Origin: Candidatus Borrarchaeum weybense
GTDB taxonomy: Archaea > Asgardarchaeota > Sifarchaeia > Borrarchaeales > Borrarchaeaceae
DNA: 64,000 bases
NCBI GenBank assembly: GCA_019057385.1
Contig: JAHQJS010000005.1
Location: forward strand, 32,001-96,000
Direction of reading: 5' to 3'
Both the position numbers and the translations under genes were made by a program. This document shows, piece after piece, positions 31,558 through 51,469 of this stretch; the first letter of the stretch is position 1; the number at the start of each line of letters is the position of its first letter. The notes beneath the pieces were generated by a model, which was not told where the DNA came from, ran no database searches, and was given only the letters and a program-made list of their open reading frames with translations.

Positions 31558-32135
31558 AATTAGTTGTCGGAGTAACCGGCGCTAGCGGCGTAATTTATGC
31601 GTTAAAACTATTGAAATTCTTACAGGAACAAACTAGTTCCGAAGTTCATCTTGTTATCTCGAATCCCGCTGAAATTGTTATTGAACATGAACTAGAAATG
31701 GATAAAAAGGAATTTCAAAAATTTGCAGCTTATTCTTATGAAATTGACGATTTTCTATCACCCATTGCAAGTGGATCTCAGCAATTTGATGCTATGATAA
31801 TCATACCGTGTTCTATGTCTTCCCTTGCCGCGATTGCACAGGGATACACAACAAATCTTTTGTTACGGGCAGCAGATATTAGCATAAAAGAAAAAAGAAC
31901 TCTCATTATAATGCCGAGAGAACTCCCTTTCAGTCCAATTCATTTAGAAAACATGCTTAAATTAGCTAATTTAGGTGTGCATATAGTACCCGCAGCACCT
32001 GGTTTCTATCATAAACCAAAACATATTGAAGATCTTGTGAATTTTGTTGTTGGTCGGATATTAGATCTATTACATATTCCACATAACTTGTTTTCGCGGT
32101 GGCCATCTAAAAAGACTAAACGAAATGATTCTTAA
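31554..32135 (+). CDS. ubiX: Flavin prenyltransferase UbiX
   Basis: GVTGASG, IASGS, PCSM, RAAD..KE.R, PRE.P, PGFY. Confidence 0.95.
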   Translation: MKLVVGVTGASGVIYALKLLKFLQEQTSSEVHLVISNPAEIVIEHELEMDKKEFQKFAAYSYEIDDFLSPIASGSQQFDAMIIIPCSMSSLAAIAQGYTTNLLLRAADISIKEKRTLIIMPRELPFSPIHLENMLKLANLGVHIVPAAPGFYHKPKHIEDLVNFVVGRILDLLHIPHNLFSRWPSKKTKRNDS

Positions 32136-43088: not shown

Positions 43089-43149
43089 CATATCCCGTTG
43101 GGGAATGGATGATTCAGGAAGCCAGCCTACTTGTAGGGTGGTAGTTCAC
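43000..43149 (+). ncRNA. Predicted omegaRNA scaffold of tnpB element 2; 5' boundary approximate
   Basis: Overlaps the tnpB 3' end and right-end hairpin. Confidence 0.55.
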
Positions 43150-43224
43150 CGATATGTAGAGAACACATTTCTTAAAAAAGTAAAGAAGTATGCCATATTG
43201 AAACACTGCACAGGTTGGAAACAG

Positions 43225-46478: not shown

Positions 46479-47705
46479 CTATGTGCCTAGCACTGCAGAA
46501 GATAATGCTAGGTTGCAATGCATTATTTCCTTTTGTTGAGTCGTTGCTTGTTCGCCGAAAACATTGTATCCGATGAACGGTGTGTCACCAAGAGCCATTT
46601 TTGCCTGTTCGACTACTTCACCGACTCTATCCCCAATTGCCAGTCTACATCCAGCACAGTGGACGAGAAAACCGAAACTTGGTTGTGATATCTTGCCCAT
46701 GTCAATCGCTCTCTTAAAGACTGCATTAGTCTCCGCAACTAATTCATCTTGTGTAGCAGACAAAACAGCAATATCAGCCCCTTGAGGAAATACCACATAA
46801 CCATCTATTGATAGATCCTCATTGACATTGCCAGGATGCACCGTCTGCCAATAGCCCTCGTGTGCAATTCCGATCGGATTAAAGAAGGATTCGCTTAATA
46901 TCGCTCCACCTTTAATTGAGTCTAAAGTTTTGCCCGCCCATTCCGCATAGACTTCTGCTGCGGGGCGCCCATCTATTTCGTAGAGTGTCCTTCCTTTGGC
47001 CTTCGTTGCTTTACCACGTTTCAAAGGTTCATATTCCTGACTATAACTATAGCCAACCTTAAGATCCTTTGAATACAAGCAAGCTACCGATAAATAGTCG
47101 CTGTATACGTCCAAATCAGCAAACTGCTTCCATTTACCCTCAAGTGTATTATCCGCTGAGGTGCCTCCAACTATTGGAAACATTGTAGGGACGGCACTTC
47201 TAATCCCACGGATGTGCCCCTCTTCAACTCCCGGTGCAGCGCACATCAACACCAAATCCGGTGGATGGCGTTCAGTTTGCCCTACCGCAGTAGTCGTACG
47301 TGAGTCCACAGCGGTCTGAACGTGTTCACCAACATCGGCTAAGGCTCGTTTCATTGCGAGTTCGCCTTCACCGAAACCATCACTTCTGATTTTTGTCGCC
47401 CCTACGCCAACAGTCAAAGTCGGTGAAGATAAAATTGCTACCCCTACAGAGCCATTTTCACTTTCAATAAAACCGTCAGGGGTCCACACACCACCTAATG
47501 ATGTCCCGCCCCATAGTGGCGCTCTTTTTGTGGCTTTATTGATTCCATTTATTATTTTTTGTTCATTATATTGAACTGTGCAAAATGCTATTGTAAAGGT
47601 TGGTTCGGCACCGCCAAGTTGTGCTAGAGCTTTATTAGCGGCTTCTGTTCCTGCCTCTTTCGGATCTTCCAAAGTAGAATATCCTATTCCTACCTTCAAG
47701 GACAT
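46479..47705 (-). CDS. FIST N/C domain protein
   Basis: PIVGGTSAD, EIDGRPA, HCAGC, FGEQ, HCN. Confidence 0.88.
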   Translation of the reverse strand: MSLKVGIGYSTLEDPKEAGTEAANKALAQLGGAEPTFTIAFCTVQYNEQKIINGINKATKRAPLWGGTSLGGVWTPDGFIESENGSVGVAILSSPTLTVGVGATKIRSDGFGEGELAMKRALADVGEHVQTAVDSRTTTAVGQTERHPPDLVLMCAAPGVEEGHIRGIRSAVPTMFPIVGGTSADNTLEGKWKQFADLDVYSDYLSVACLYSKDLKVGYSYSQEYEPLKRGKATKAKGRTLYEIDGRPAAEVYAEWAGKTLDSIKGGAILSESFFNPIGIAHEGYWQTVHPGNVNEDLSIDGYVVFPQGADIAVLSATQDELVAETNAVFKRAIDMGKISQPSFGFLVHCAGCRLAIGDRVGEVVEQAKMALGDTPFIGYNVFGEQATTQQKEIMHCNLALSSAVLGT

Positions 47706-47807
47706 TTTTCATTACCTAACAAAGCGTTACTATTAGAATTTAAAATATAATATTGATGTCTAACGCTTTTAGGGTTTCGATTGAGGCGAATATTTCAATT
47801 AAAATTA

Positions 47808-48113
47808 TTAATGTGCGGGAATACTACGTACTGATCCTTGATGAAATGAATAAGAATTCACATAATAATTCAATATTAATTCTTCTAGTAGTACTTGGTC
47901 ACACACACCACCTATTTTCATGAAGTCAGGGAAAACAAGTGTAGGACATACAACTACATCATACTTTTTAGAAGTCTCTGGAATTTTGGTTATATCTACT
48001 TTTTTGATTTTGATTGGTAGTTTATTTTTTTCAATAACTCCTAAAAGACGTTGTTCTACCAGAGGACAAAGACCACATGTGGGCGATATAAAAAGATAGA
48101 CTTCTAATTTCAT
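47808..48113 (-). CDS. Thioredoxin/glutaredoxin-like protein
   Basis: SPTCGLCP, VDIT, Y.V..CPT; start moved to ATG 48113. Confidence 0.75.
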   Translation of the reverse strand: MKLEVYLFISPTCGLCPLVEQRLLGVIEKNKLPIKIKKVDITKIPETSKKYDVVVCPTLVFPDFMKIGGVCDQVLLEELILNYYVNSYSFHQGSVRSIPAH

Positions 48114-48261
48114 TCGTTTCCCCTGCCTACTTCCTTTAACTTTATATAAAGACCACATTTTTTGTGAGAGTCCAAAAATTAGCTGAGTTTATCGAATGTA
48201 TTTAAGTTACAAATTTAAACCACATAATCCATTTTAGAGTGCATAACAAAAGGTGGAGTCT

Positions 48262-48411
48262 TTAACCTCTATTCTTCTCCTTAAGCCATAACTTGATCGC
48301 TTCTTCTATCGCTTTACTTTGATCGCCTTTTTTCCCACCTAGTCTCTTTGCTACTTCCACTCTGAATTCCTTTTCTAGCTCATCATCTATTACGAAGGAG
48401 ACTTTGCCCAT
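48262..48411 (-). CDS. Ribbon-helix-helix (CopG-like) regulator, 49 aa, not in ORF track
   Basis: MGKVSFVIDDELEKEFRVEVAKRLGGKKGDQSKAIEEAIKLWL; GGGTG RBS 7 nt upstream. Confidence 0.85.
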   Translation of the reverse strand: MGKVSFVIDDELEKEFRVEVAKRLGGKKGDQSKAIEEAIKLWLKEKNRG

Positions 48412-48431
48412 CTAATATCACCCGCACAATT

Positions 48432-48506
48432 TATAGGAATATCTACTTATATGATTAACGGTTATTATTGATATTCCTATATTCAGAAAAGTTTATATAG
48501 GAATAT
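48432..48506. promoter_or_regulatory. Three TATAGGAATAT boxes around a BRE-TATA promoter
   Basis: Copies at 48432 (+), 48471-48481 (inverted) and 48496 (+); GAAAAGTTTATATA at 48486-48499. Confidence 0.7.
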
Positions 48507-48629
48507 GACCTTATAAATAATGCCGACGAAAAAACTTGTCGCATAGAAAACGAATGCGGGTACAAAAATAGCGATTTTTTCCAAATATGATACATAAAAA
48601 ATCATCTCAAGTTAGGGGAGTCGTGTGGC

Positions 48630-49472
48630 ATGTCCAAAAAAATGTCTGACCGAGTTAAGAGGATACAAAATCCTCAGAGAATTCTAAAAGTGGTTGCTTA
48701 TACCGCAATCGCCAAACCGTTAAACGGTTCTCTTCCTAGAAGTAATAATTCGCATTTTTTGAGATTATATCCTATAAAGTATTCTTACAGGAATGGTAAA
48801 GAGGAAAAGGAAGCTTTCTCTATATCGTATTTACTTAAAGGGATTAGAGGAGCTATTAGGCATCAAGTGATGAAGACTTGTTATGATGCTGGTGTGGAGG
48901 TGTGCCACACTAGCGATAAAGCGACCGATAAAGCGGGCAACAGTCTTCTTCCTAAAGGTTTTCATCTTTCGGGTTCTTGTAAGGGCAATGGTGAATGCAT
49001 AGTTCATCAAGTTTTTGGATCTATGGGTACTGAAGGTTTAATTTCTGTCTACGCAGAGCCAATTACAGCAATTTCTCATAAATCGGCTAAAACTGAAGTT
49101 AAAGTTCAAAAAGTCCATATTGCCACTGAAAATCGTGTTTGCATGACTTTTGATAACAAACCTGTCCAAGACTTTGGCGAGCGGTATTTTTCCGGTGAAT
49201 TTACCTTTGAAATTGATGTTACGCGTTGTACAAGTGAACAAATTGGTTTATTGATTGAATCAGTTATTAACATGCAAAGACTAGGCAGAGGATACAATGC
49301 GGGATATGGTAGGGTTCAAATTAAGCGATTTCAATTATTAGAGCGCATAATAAAGAGGATTCCGGAGTGGCAAGAAGATAACTTCATTGTCAAAGAAGAA
49401 CTTAACGAAATTTCGTTAAAAAACGAGGTTGTAGAGGCGATGGAGGCTTGGAATGCTTACGTTAATACTTGA
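48630..49472 (+). CDS. cas7: Cas7-like RAMP (Csm3/Csc2-like backbone subunit)
   Basis: KGIRGAIRH, Cys/His cluster ending C.VHQVFGS, ENR thumb, GEFTFEI, G-rich loop LGRGYNAGYGRV. Confidence 0.8.
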   Translation: MSKKMSDRVKRIQNPQRILKVVAYTAIAKPLNGSLPRSNNSHFLRLYPIKYSYRNGKEEKEAFSISYLLKGIRGAIRHQVMKTCYDAGVEVCHTSDKATDKAGNSLLPKGFHLSGSCKGNGECIVHQVFGSMGTEGLISVYAEPITAISHKSAKTEVKVQKVHIATENRVCMTFDNKPVQDFGERYFSGEFTFEIDVTRCTSEQIGLLIESVINMQRLGRGYNAGYGRVQIKRFQLLERIIKRIPEWQEDNFIVKEELNEISLKNEVVEAMEAWNAYVNT

Positions 49473-50274
49473 AGGTCAAATTGTAACTCCAATTGTCACT
49501 AGGAAAACTGAATTTTATATGGAAGGATGTAAAGCTATAATTAAGCATCCAAGAAGACGTTATTACAATAAAATTAATGCATCTAAGCCGATGTATCCCT
49601 ATTCATTTCAGTGCTATTTAGGAGCTATTGAATTACACTTTAGATGTTCAAATACTGCAAAACTAAAACAGAAATTAAAAGATTTGTTGCAGATTAAAGC
49701 GATAGGGCGCTTTCATAGTGAAGGGATGGGATTGGTCCAATGGATCAAGGGCACCATACATTCGAATTATGAGCCAACTCACACAAAAAATACACGAACA
49801 CTCCGAATTCGCAAAGGTCTTCCTCATAATTTAACAAAAGATACCAAGAAACTGTTATTGTATGCTTTGCTTCATGATTTTGTTAATACGCCTAAACATA
49901 AATCTAAAATTTACATAGAACCGAATCTAGACGGCATAGCGTATTTATGCAACCATCATGATAAAACAGAAGACAGTTTCATTCAGTTATTTCAGAAATA
50001 TGACCATCTAGCGGCCATGATTACAAGAAAGATAAGGTCACCCAGAACTAATAGGTATAACTGGTCTTCCAATAGCAATATTAATTTTGAAAAATTAGCA
50101 ACAGAGATAAAGGAGGTGGCATCCAACATTTGGAAGTTGTATGATTACATCTATCAGAGTAAAGAACTAGAGCAATTAAACGAAAGTTTACAACATGGCC
50201 ACACGTCATTAAGAAATCATTTACTGGTGATAGTCAATTTAATAGTGCATGATTTTCAAAGAAATGAACTTTGA
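49453..50274 (+). CDS. Cas5-like RAMP fused to HD nuclease domain
   Basis: N-terminal beta strand + TP, G-loop IGRFHSEGMGLV; then ALLHDF, H, HHD, YDHLAA, SLRNH; overlaps cas7 by 20 nt with a GGAGG RBS. Confidence 0.7.
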   Translation: MLTLILEGQIVTPIVTRKTEFYMEGCKAIIKHPRRRYYNKINASKPMYPYSFQCYLGAIELHFRCSNTAKLKQKLKDLLQIKAIGRFHSEGMGLVQWIKGTIHSNYEPTHTKNTRTLRIRKGLPHNLTKDTKKLLLYALLHDFVNTPKHKSKIYIEPNLDGIAYLCNHHDKTEDSFIQLFQKYDHLAAMITRKIRSPRTNRYNWSSNSNINFEKLATEIKEVASNIWKLYDYIYQSKELEQLNESLQHGHTSLRNHLLVIVNLIVHDFQRNEL

Positions 50275-50378
50275 AGGGTTTTGCACACCAAGGGACAGAT
50301 TGCCGTTGCCCTGCTAAATGTGAGCAGAAGGGCTTGATAGTAGGGCGTTAAAGGTTTCTGCTCTTTACCCCGCACCCA
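50275..50378 (+). ncRNA. Candidate structured RNA downstream of the RAMP-HD operon
   Basis: GC-rich; 50308-16 pairs with 50338-46 and 50322-29 pairs with 50356-63 (pseudoknot topology). Confidence 0.35.
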
Positions 50379-50413
50379 AAATATTATATTGGATTGGGGA
50401 TCCTTAAGGCACT

Positions 50414-50902
50414 ATGACTGAAACAACTGAAAAGCCCTATTTAGACTATATTGATTTTGGACATGCAAGCCTCAAAAATTTCTTCGTTTTCCGAATTAGC
50501 AAAGGTGGTGACTTGTTCCGCTGTCTTGAAGCGAAATTAAAAGACGAAGGAATTAGATCAGGTTTAGTACTGTTCATGCTCGGGACGTTGAGAAACGCAC
50601 GTCTTGCTTATTTCAACACAAATATTGGCGAGTTTCACGTGAATGAATTCAATCCTCCTGGAGGTATTGAATGTGTTGCAGGGAGCGGTACTGTAAGCAT
50701 TCAAGAAGACGAAATGCTAGCACATATCCATGTGGTTGTTGCTGGTCCAACAGGAAATGCCTATGGCGGTCATATTTACCCCGGGAGTATTGTAAAAGAG
50801 TATATAGAAGGCGGCATAGTGATTTTAGAAGATATACGTATGGAACGAATTTATGATGAAAATGTTAAAGCTTTTCCTCTGAAGTTTTTCGATCCTGAAT
50901 GA
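50414..50902 (+). CDS. PPC domain (DUF296) protein
   Basis: LG.L..A.L, G.G.VS, HIHVV, GGHI. Confidence 0.88.
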   Translation: MTETTEKPYLDYIDFGHASLKNFFVFRISKGGDLFRCLEAKLKDEGIRSGLVLFMLGTLRNARLAYFNTNIGEFHVNEFNPPGGIECVAGSGTVSIQEDEMLAHIHVVVAGPTGNAYGGHIYPGSIVKEYIEGGIVILEDIRMERIYDENVKAFPLKFFDPE

Positions 50903-50938
50903 AAGGGAAAAATTAGCGAGAAATATATCGTAAAAAGG

Positions 50939-51469
50939 TTACATTCTGACGAGTTTTTCGCCTTTTTCTATCACAACTTTACAAGACGTCGGAAATTTCA
51001 TAGCGGCACGTCGTAATGCATCCTTTGAAAACTTGAAGTTTTCAGCAGTCGTTCTGACGGTAACTAATGGTTGGCCACGACGTACTCGGGCAGCTGTACC
51101 GATTGGTTTTCCAAATGCCCGTCGCATACCGTCTTGAAGCCTGTCTGCACCTGCAAAAGCCATCATCTTGTTTTCTCTAAGAACGTGAAACGGGTGCGGG
51201 CGAATTCTTAAATGATATCCTTGTCTTCCGATTGTCTTTGTGAGATATCTATTTACAGTTTGTCTTGCTGCTTCTAAAGCGCTGTGGCGAATTTGACATG
51301 ATTCTTCTGCAATCAATGAAACTTTTAAAGGAAACTGTTCAATGCCACCTGTCCTCAATCCCATGTCATAAATTGTAATTTTTGGACCAGGGATGCCGCG
51401 CATGTACTTTTTTCTTGTGTACGCTTTTTTCTTGAGGTTACGATAACATTTCGCTGGTCTTTCTGGAAT
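50939..51469 (-). CDS. rpl10e: Ribosomal protein uL16 (L10e); start extended to ATT 51469
   Basis: [28 protein letters not shown]; conserved N-terminus PERPAKCYR in frame upstream. Confidence 0.96.

Follow-up and report, generated by a model that had tools for sequence, protein, structure and literature searches.

A compact Asgard RAMP cassette in Candidatus Borrarchaeum weybense with Cas7-like and Cas5-HD proteins, a putative repressor and a conserved structured RNA element

Introduction

ARAMP and HRAMP modules are the smallest known derivatives of CRISPR systems. Here we describe a compact locus that is probably an ARAMP member, found in a 64,000-nucleotide stretch of the Asgard archaeon Candidatus Borrarchaeum weybense (assembly GCA_019057385.1, contig JAHQJS010000005.1, forward-strand positions 32,001 to 96,000; the whole stretch is called the window, and positions count from its first letter). 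In it, an open reading frame for a Cas7-like protein (ORF1) overlaps one for a Cas5-HD fusion (ORF2), behind which lies a conserved structured RNA element, R2. In the two secondary summaries on which we draw, ARAMP (Makarova, Wolf, Shmakov, Liu, Li and Koonin 2020, CRISPR J 3:156) is described as confined to Asgard archaea, with a diverged Cas7 and Cas5 closest to those of type III and no CRISPR array (PMC8730458, PMC12669027), a distinct Cas1 homologue in most loci (PMC8730458), and an associated nuclease that is most often HNH or PD-(D/E)xK (PMC12669027). HRAMP is described there as haloarchaeal, with miniature, array-less, diverged Cas5/Cas7 modules and typically HNH-type nucleases (Makarova et al. 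2019, FEMS Microbiol Lett 366:fnz079, as summarised in PMC8730458). The supplement of PMC12669027 (2025) leaves open whether ARAMP and HRAMP modules interact with CRISPR RNA (crRNA) and adds that use of RNA would qualify them as new CRISPR-Cas types. Among the systems with a comparable nuclease domain is type IV-C, whose large subunit Csf1 carries a Cas10-like HD domain (PMC8730458).

Results and discussion

The locus compared with described systems

As far as the summarised descriptions go, the locus resembles ARAMP in its Asgard host, in its diverged type III-like Cas7 and Cas5, and in having neither an array nor a canonical adaptation module at the locus, and its sibling and orthologous loci carry a distinct Cas1 and, in some cases, a PD-(D/E)xK protein. 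It differs from those descriptions in that Cas1 and a separate nuclease gene are both missing from this copy, an HD domain being fused to Cas5 instead, and in having its own ribbon-helix-helix (RHH) gene, the R2 RNA and the form of a mobile 2.2-kb unit. We consider it probable that the locus belongs to ARAMP as a compact, mobile member with its own regulation, combining an RHH repressor, a Cas7-like protein, a Cas5-HD protein and a structured RNA encoded in cis. Because the pair falls in an Asgard-restricted, Cas1-linked family, the novelty that the preliminary description, made from the sequence alone, had claimed for the system is given up: it had itself made that claim depend on the pair not clustering with an already described ARAMP variant, and the family, with its diverged Cas1 in sibling loci, is ARAMP as summarised. 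Relative to the literature covered, what is new is that this clade has an RNA dedicated to it and that the 2.2-kb unit behaves as a mobile cassette.

Likeness to type III (Csm/Cmr) systems runs through both proteins, with Csm4 and Cmr subunits among the matches of the ORF2 RAMP, the HD domain of Csm1 similar to that of ORF2, and Csm3 profiles similar to ORF1; unlike type III, the cassette has no Cas10 palm or cyclase and no Cas11 or Cas6 gene, and its contig has no array. Type IV is likewise a reduced type III derivative with a Cas7 (Csf2), a Cas5 (Csf3) and a Cas10-type HD domain. The Cas7 of type IV-A and Csf3 are among the best structural matches here, and an ESM Atlas cluster of Csf1-Csf3 fusions aligns over residues 1-254 of ORF2. 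However, the cassette lacks Csf1, DinG and an array, its HD domain sits on Cas5 and not on the large subunit, and ORF1 scored 22.1 bits against the NCBIfam Csf2 model TIGR03115, for which the cut-off is 130. HRAMP, compared by its summarised description only, is alike as a miniature array-less Cas5/Cas7 module with nucleases and unlike in its haloarchaeal hosts and typically HNH-type nucleases. OMEGA systems (TnpB/IscB with omega-RNA) offer an analogy only: there too a structured RNA lies at the 3' end of the effector gene and the RNA end is the boundary of the mobile unit, whereas their RuvC nucleases are unrelated to the class 1 RAMPs found here, the cassette has no transposase, and a flank-derived guide would be a matter of analogy.

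The Cas7-like and Cas5-HD proteins

ORF1 scored 26.7 bits against Pfam RAMPs (cut-off 22.1) and matched the PADLOC Csm3 profile (E 1.1e-8). Its AlphaFold2 (AF2) model (pLDDT 88, pTM 0.83) gave 216 PDB matches at E<=1e-3 in Foldseek, led by the Cas7 proteins of types IV-A (IV-A3), VII and III together with gRAMP, the best at E about 3e-9. The preliminary description had identified ORF1 as Cas7-like and had expected structure comparison to return Cas7 for ORF1 and Cas5 plus HD for ORF2, and both proteins turned out so. All the motifs that it had quoted are present, most of them conserved in the family alignments: in ORF1 these are GIRGAIRH (71-78), VFGS (127-130) and LGRGYNAGYG (218-227), with the glycine loop kept throughout the family. 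The alignment also has C92, H112, C117 and C123 invariant and H93 nearly so, and no Asp that is invariant or nearly so anywhere along its length, so the remark that ORF1 has no obvious Csm3-type catalytic Asp fits; Csm3 has such a residue, while ORF1 has no conserved Asp at that place. The Cys/His cluster (residues 92-123) suggests a zinc site in the Cas7-like protein. Zinc fingers occur in the Cas7 domains of Cas7-11/gRAMP, and the structural matches of ORF1 include gRAMP.

ORF2 had no match in Pfam, NCBIfam or PADLOC, and its profile gave 0 matches at E<=10 among PDB sequences, but its AF2 model (pLDDT 87) has two domains, as had been proposed from the sequence: a short RAMP and an HD domain. 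The RAMP, with the G-loop IGRFHSEGMG at residues 84-93, has best VIA-align rows of Z 8.4-8.8 and root-mean-square deviation (rmsd) 2.3-2.8 A, and clusters of Csm4, Csf3 and Csx10 lead its ESM Atlas list. Cas6 matches this domain as well, at Z about 7, so the call as Cas5 rests on rank and on the model of its contact with Cas7. The HD domain aligns with the N-terminal HD of Csm1/Cas10 (6mua_A 1-218) at Z 6.6 and rmsd 3.5 A over 130 residues, and features of the ESM language model point to HD-family clusters at 0.90, which we take as a lead only. Its motif residues H141 and D142 (LLHD), H149, H168, H169 and H256 (SLRNH) are invariant and D184 nearly so. The order of these motifs, HD first and the last His at the end, had been noted as that of Cas10-type domains, and the Csm1 match, of moderate strength, agrees with this. 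No Cas10 palm or cyclase domain was found in the ORF2 model, which consists of RAMP and HD only.

The two genes overlap by 20 nt, with GGAGG at 49442-49446, 6 nt ahead of the ORF2 ATG, just as the coupled pair had been described. Compared with a relative of 89% nucleotide identity, codon positions 1, 2 and 3 are identical at 0.96/0.94/0.77 in ORF1 and 0.94/0.93/0.82 in ORF2, so both genes are under purifying selection. A complex of ORF1 with the ORF2 RAMP was predicted at ipSAE 0.80, compared with 0.00 for the best control, a mark reached by 58 of 80 solved complexes and by 2 of 110 mismatched pairs. The runs had at least 73% of their contacts in common, and partner pLDDT was at least 72. Because Cas5-Cas7 complexes have already been solved, part of this score may reflect likeness to known structures. 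The binding of Cas7 to Cas5 that the proposal of a two-protein effector entailed is thus predicted, and the remainder of that proposal, assembly on RNA and nuclease activity, is put forward here conditionally.

A conserved structured RNA directly behind the Cas5-HD gene

R2, about 130 nt long, begins directly after the ORF2 stop codon. Its structure has a long irregular hairpin (~50290-50365) and then another whose loop varies (~50368-50399), and it closes with a conserved tail, ATCCTTAAG. Over the 133 nt that follow the stop codon, identity to L071, a contig that carries a close relative of the cassette, is 92.5%, versus 77-82% at third codon positions. R2 was also detected by nhmmer directly after ORF2 in other Asgard genomes whose proteins are only ~48-59% identical, and it recurs at this position in one protein clade across several Asgard families. 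An alignment of 12 sequences supports a structure of 19 pairs, 11 of them with compensatory changes. Paired cells reach 93% versus 29-42% in slid controls, and no shuffle attains the covariation score. Pairs of U-G and G-U are frequent (columns 35/75, for example, are U-G in 10 of the 12 sequences) and fit the plus strand only. The covariance model built from it scored 117 bits at the locus with nothing else of note in the window or genome, and recovered loci outside its training set, each just after ORF2 (L014, L023, L040, L050 and L054). R2 occurred in 7 of 151 sampled genomes of the phylum, mostly behind ORF2 or its 3' fragments, and an Rfam search over 47700-51000 gave no match. Since a conserved structured RNA is thus encoded in cis directly behind ORF2, the earlier idea that the effector uses a non-CRISPR or in-trans guide needs to be revised.

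Inside the last codons of ORF2, ~30 nt before R2, lies a TATA-like sequence, AATTTAATAG, that is well conserved at the nucleotide level. An internal promoter in the 3' end of ORF2 is plausible, with a conservation inseparable from protein and codon-usage constraints: third-position conservation in the block is 0.64, versus 0.44-0.66 in the rest of the gene, and its codons are the common AT-rich ones.

Sibling modules, their own RNA and the CRISPR array of the genome

The genome (4.18 Mb in 8 contigs, ~37% G+C) holds 11 pairs of ORF1 and ORF2, the siblings being 35-45% identical to the pair studied here. Among the ten sibling modules (Table 1), the copy near 65 kb on contig C3 has no Cas5-HD gene. 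Six sibling loci have an intact upstream gene for a ~1330-aa helicase-Cas1 protein and a seventh has a split one. This protein has a DEAD-helicase N-terminus, with Pfam Cas_Cas1 above its cut-off in the upstream proteins of modules M2 and M7, and an ESM Atlas feature search with an N-terminally truncated form of 852 aa gave no usable match. The minimal layout of the studied locus recurs in the sibling clade, at M11 and L027, where a homologue of the RHH gene divergently adjoins the pair.

The siblings are accompanied by an RNA of another kind, R1, a conserved structured element of ~100-130 nt that lies between or after their genes, 1-3 per module, with 28 copies in the genome, some of them orphans. 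The R2 model found no match in the ten sibling loci (L001-L010), and since neither model finds the loci of the other, we treat R1 and R2 as distinct families. A tree of Cas5-HD proteins likewise places R2-linked and R1-linked sequences in separate clades (support 100/99), and the studied copy is the sole member of the R2 clade in its own genome. Two candidates were rejected along the way: ORFs of 65-120 aa between or after the sibling genes, considered as small proteins, are frames across the R1 RNA, and R1 itself is not supported in the window, where its covariance model reached 10.8 bits at best (E 3.4), with no hit near the locus.

The sole CRISPR array of the genome, ~49 repeats of 37 nt spaced 75-83 nt apart, lies at C4:148433-152111 with a canonical Cas1 beside it (array and Cas1 together, C4:148433-154474). 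As the preliminary description had reported for the 64 kb, no array was found on the window contig and no match to Pfam Cas_Cas1 within the window or cassette; cas2, cas6, cas8 and cas10, which it had also listed as absent, were given no separate search.

The unit as a mobile cassette

The 2.23-kb unit, comprising the RHH gene, the cas7-like gene, the cas5-HD fusion and R2 (48177-50407), behaves as a mobile cassette, occupying different loci in close relatives whose alternative sites lack it. It is 89% identical to L071:1664-3891, and identity in the flanks drops to about 41%. The site between the thioredoxin and PCC-domain genes is filled in the window and in metagenome contigs L069 and L070 (97.6% identity over 3252 nt), and a second site, with the gene for primase PriS on one side and that for a HAD hydrolase on the other, is filled in L071 and in the contig carrying P0005. 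The PriS-HAD site of the own genome has no cassette, relative to which L071 1500-3889 is an insertion, and window bases 48254-50413 are absent from the thioredoxin-PCC site of G308, a genome of the same genus. At the PriS-HAD site of another genome, G305, we found a derivative in which an internal deletion has left only R2 and the final ~84 nt of ORF2, before the HAD gene.

The right end of the cassette coincides with the conserved tail of R2 in both insertion contexts, homology ending at 50407. In the window it stops 6 nt short of the PCC-domain ATG (positions 50401-50416), and in L071 ~5 nt short of the HAD ATG. Because it abuts the host ATG, insertion cuts the host gene off from what used to lie upstream of it. 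The left end is fixed less precisely: the piece 48177-48261 is 78% identical to L071, and window bases up to 48253 also stand just upstream of the PCC gene in G308, ~70 nt of which correspond to 48177-48246. Since the same bases precede PCC in this cassette-less genome, the left piece is either an old PCC promoter or a cassette remnant. Target-site duplications are ambiguous: the L071 insertion has an A-rich direct repeat of 5-7 bp, the window site no more than an imperfect xxAAGG. The cassette encodes no integrase or transposase. Movement without a recombinase of its own raises the question of how the family spreads and whether the diverged Cas1-helicases of sibling loci take part.

A putative repressor and its possible operator

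The claim that the pair has its own regulator is supported. Against Pfam RHH_6 the divergent ORF has E 1.7e-5 and 25.8 bits, slightly short of the 27-bit cut-off; it is 94% identical to L071 at the nucleotide level and accompanies the pair in relatives, its position and spacing kept in L069, L070, L071 and the contig carrying P0005. The 218-nt intergenic region between it and ORF1 contains a 12-nt repeat, TATAGGAATATC, three times, at 48432-48443, 48470-48481 and 48495-48506, two direct and one inverted, the third matching at 11 of 12 positions. In L071 this region is 88% identical overall, with two of the three copies unchanged and that at 48432-48443 one base off. These repeats would be the operator of the RHH protein.

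Proposed function and alternatives

We suggest that several Cas7 subunits and one Cas5-HD subunit would assemble on the cis-encoded R2 RNA, as a class 1 effector does on its crRNA. The Cas5 RAMP may bind a conserved part of R2, and the HD domain, taking the place of the large subunit, could cut nucleic acid once the complex engages a target, while the RHH protein would bind the three 12-nt repeats of the divergent promoter and keep expression low. By analogy with class 1 effectors, a crRNA-like part for R2 is most plausibly its function, and R2 may be the RNA partner of ARAMP that is still missing from the literature covered. If so, R2 behind the cas5-HD gene makes the question of RNA use by ARAMP directly testable, and a 2.2-kb cassette with its own regulator offers a convenient minimal model.

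Several points weigh against this reading. Membership in ARAMP is judged by two secondary summaries (PMC8730458, PMC12669027), and the studied locus has no Cas1, which is said to be present in most ARAMP loci. The latter does not exclude membership, because the feature is described as frequent and not universal; seven sibling loci have Cas1, and clade-mates elsewhere have a related protein, f9. The HD match (Z 6.6) is moderate for a helical domain, and no sequence profile from Pfam, NCBIfam, PADLOC or the PDB detects HD. As for R2, the case is a comparative one throughout, and folding of the single sequence gives no stability beyond that of shuffles (z -0.75). There is no obvious spacer-like hypervariable segment in R2 except the hairpin loop, and R2 has no match of 17 nt or more elsewhere in its own genome, where only chance-level matches of 14-17 nt occur, so a guide function is unsupported by these searches. 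Lastly, a start codon follows within about 5-15 nt of R2 in several loci (the window, L071, L052, L045, L016 and L051), so R2 might act for the host gene behind it and not for the effector.

That last point leads to the alternative that R2 is a cis-acting part of the cassette (a 3' untranslated region or terminator, a leader or promoter of the host gene, or an end recognised in movement) and that the pair is free of guides, for example a non-programmable defence nuclease. The abstract of the original ARAMP paper reportedly suggested a possibly non-programmable defence. Besides the nearby start codons, the coincidence of the cassette end with the R2 tail in both insertion contexts and the G305 derivative speak for it, as do the many ORF2 3' fragments with R2 behind them that persist in other genomes. 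However, RAMPs of the Cas5/Cas7 group are RNA-binding subunits in every solved effector matched here, covariation across several helices goes well beyond a terminator hairpin, and in genomes with the accessory family f11 R2 is internal to the gene cluster, ahead of gene f12, instead of at an element end. On balance we regard a purely cis-acting R2 as rather unlikely.

It is more doubtful still that the effector borrows its guides in trans, as crRNAs from the canonical array of the genome, with R2 unrelated to guiding. The genome does have such an array with its canonical Cas1 on C4, and the CRISPR repeat has an 8-mer, TCCTTAAG, in common with the R2 tail, which may be chance. Yet R2 is linked in cis to its clade across several Asgard families and the sibling clade has a different RNA, and array-derived guides are hard to square with each protein clade keeping its own cis-linked RNA.

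We give a similarly small chance to the view that the cassette is a non-autonomous RNA-directed mobile element, in which a flank-guided Cas7/Cas5-HD complex would recognise or cut unoccupied sites and integration would be provided in trans by the helicase-Cas1 of a sibling. Because the scaffold RNA would end exactly at the right boundary of the cassette, read-through transcripts would carry a guide derived from the flank, in the manner of TnpB omega-RNAs. The precise right end in both contexts, the A-rich repeat at L071, the cassette-less sites and the lack of a recombinase are compatible with this view, and the internal position of R2 in the f11-family genomes counts against it. Were it true, ARAMP would be a class 1, Cas1-dependent counterpart of OMEGA or CAST and not a defence system.

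Finally, it is hardly credible that a larger ARAMP locus has decayed here to a remnant with its Cas1-helicase lost and no function of its own: the helicase-Cas1 gene of seven sibling loci is indeed absent here and decayed family fragments are common in related genomes, but both ORFs are intact and under purifying selection with all HD residues kept, the architecture of RHH, cas7, cas5-HD and RNA is kept in relatives of 84-97% protein identity in two genomic contexts, and the same minimal layout recurs in the sibling clade.

Distribution of the family and its accessory genes

In a large protein collection, ORF1 and ORF2 have about 85-100 relatives each, often several per genome, and the named homologues of both proteins come only from Asgard metagenome-assembled genomes (Heimdall-, Hod-, Thor-, Odin-, Hermod- and Promethearchaeota); a scan of viral contigs found no relatives of ORF2. 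A profile search of 400 genomes of the phylum gave matches in 40, concentrated in a few families and again often several per genome, many of them C-terminal fragments or interrupted by stop codons. Relics that consist of the last 25-110 Cas5-HD codons followed by R2 were seen at G071:C2:70424-70883, G071:C27:18208-18430, G058:C41:3942-4212, G072:C3:44138-44439 and G305:C215:2525-2745, and it seems that the RNA end is kept preferentially in such relics.

Accessory genes differ between groups of genomes. In those with family f11, the pair is joined by a 1339-aa protein and three proteins without a known family. In those with family f13, it is joined by a LAGLIDADG-like protein, a 672-aa protein and a PD-(D/E)xK nuclease, and no shared element was found downstream of these loci. 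Both large proteins, of 1339 and 672 aa, resemble the Cas1-like half of the helicase-Cas1 protein: compared with it by hhalign, the accessory proteins f9 and f11, from loci of clade-mates in other genomes, matched at 90.9% and 95.1% probability, respectively. The clade-mates' proteins f4, f5 and f12 showed no relation to Cas7 or Cas5 by hhalign and no match in Pfam or PADLOC. In one Asgard family, at L056:11454-18797 (G087) and L059:157-6595 (G082), the RAMP pair is divergently flanked by a conserved set comprising a LAGLIDADG-like protein of 523 aa, proteins of 246 aa, 672 aa (a relative of the Cas1-like half) and 228 aa, and a PD-(D/E)xK nuclease.

Features and surroundings of the cassette

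The features of the locus and the positions of the sibling modules are collected in Table 1. The genes that flank the cassette on both sides are housekeeping genes, for thioredoxin, a PCC-domain protein, ribosomal protein L10e/L16 and ferritin.

Table 1. Coordinates of the cassette features in the window and of the sibling loci elsewhere in the genome
Feature	Position	Strand	Basis or remark
Cassette left end	48177..48261		Non-coding; thioredoxin gene start on one side, RHH stop codon on the other
Ribbon-helix-helix gene, 49 aa, putative cassette repressor	48262..48411	-	Pfam RHH_6
Divergent promoter/operator region, three TATAGGAATATC copies	48412..48629		Repeat families D1, I1, I2
ORF1, cas7-like RAMP, 280 aa, Cys/His cluster	48630..49472	+	Pfam PF03787, PADLOC Csm3, Foldseek
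ORF2, 273 aa: cas5-like RAMP (residues 1-108) and Cas10-type HD (residues 128-273)	49453..50274	+	AF2 model, VIA-align, Atlas
R2 structured RNA element	50275..50410	+	Conservation, covariation, covariance model R2
Sibling loci L001-L010	C5:118546-125125; C4 near 340, 422, 524, 753, 905 and 1003 kb; C3 near 65 and 93 kb; C6 near 563 kb		

Elsewhere in the window, at 43096-43150, we detected a dispersed repeat of ~54 nt of which the genome holds ~30 copies, 88-100% identical. The nitroreductase-like gene has one copy immediately ahead of it, and contig L071 begins with the same repeat.

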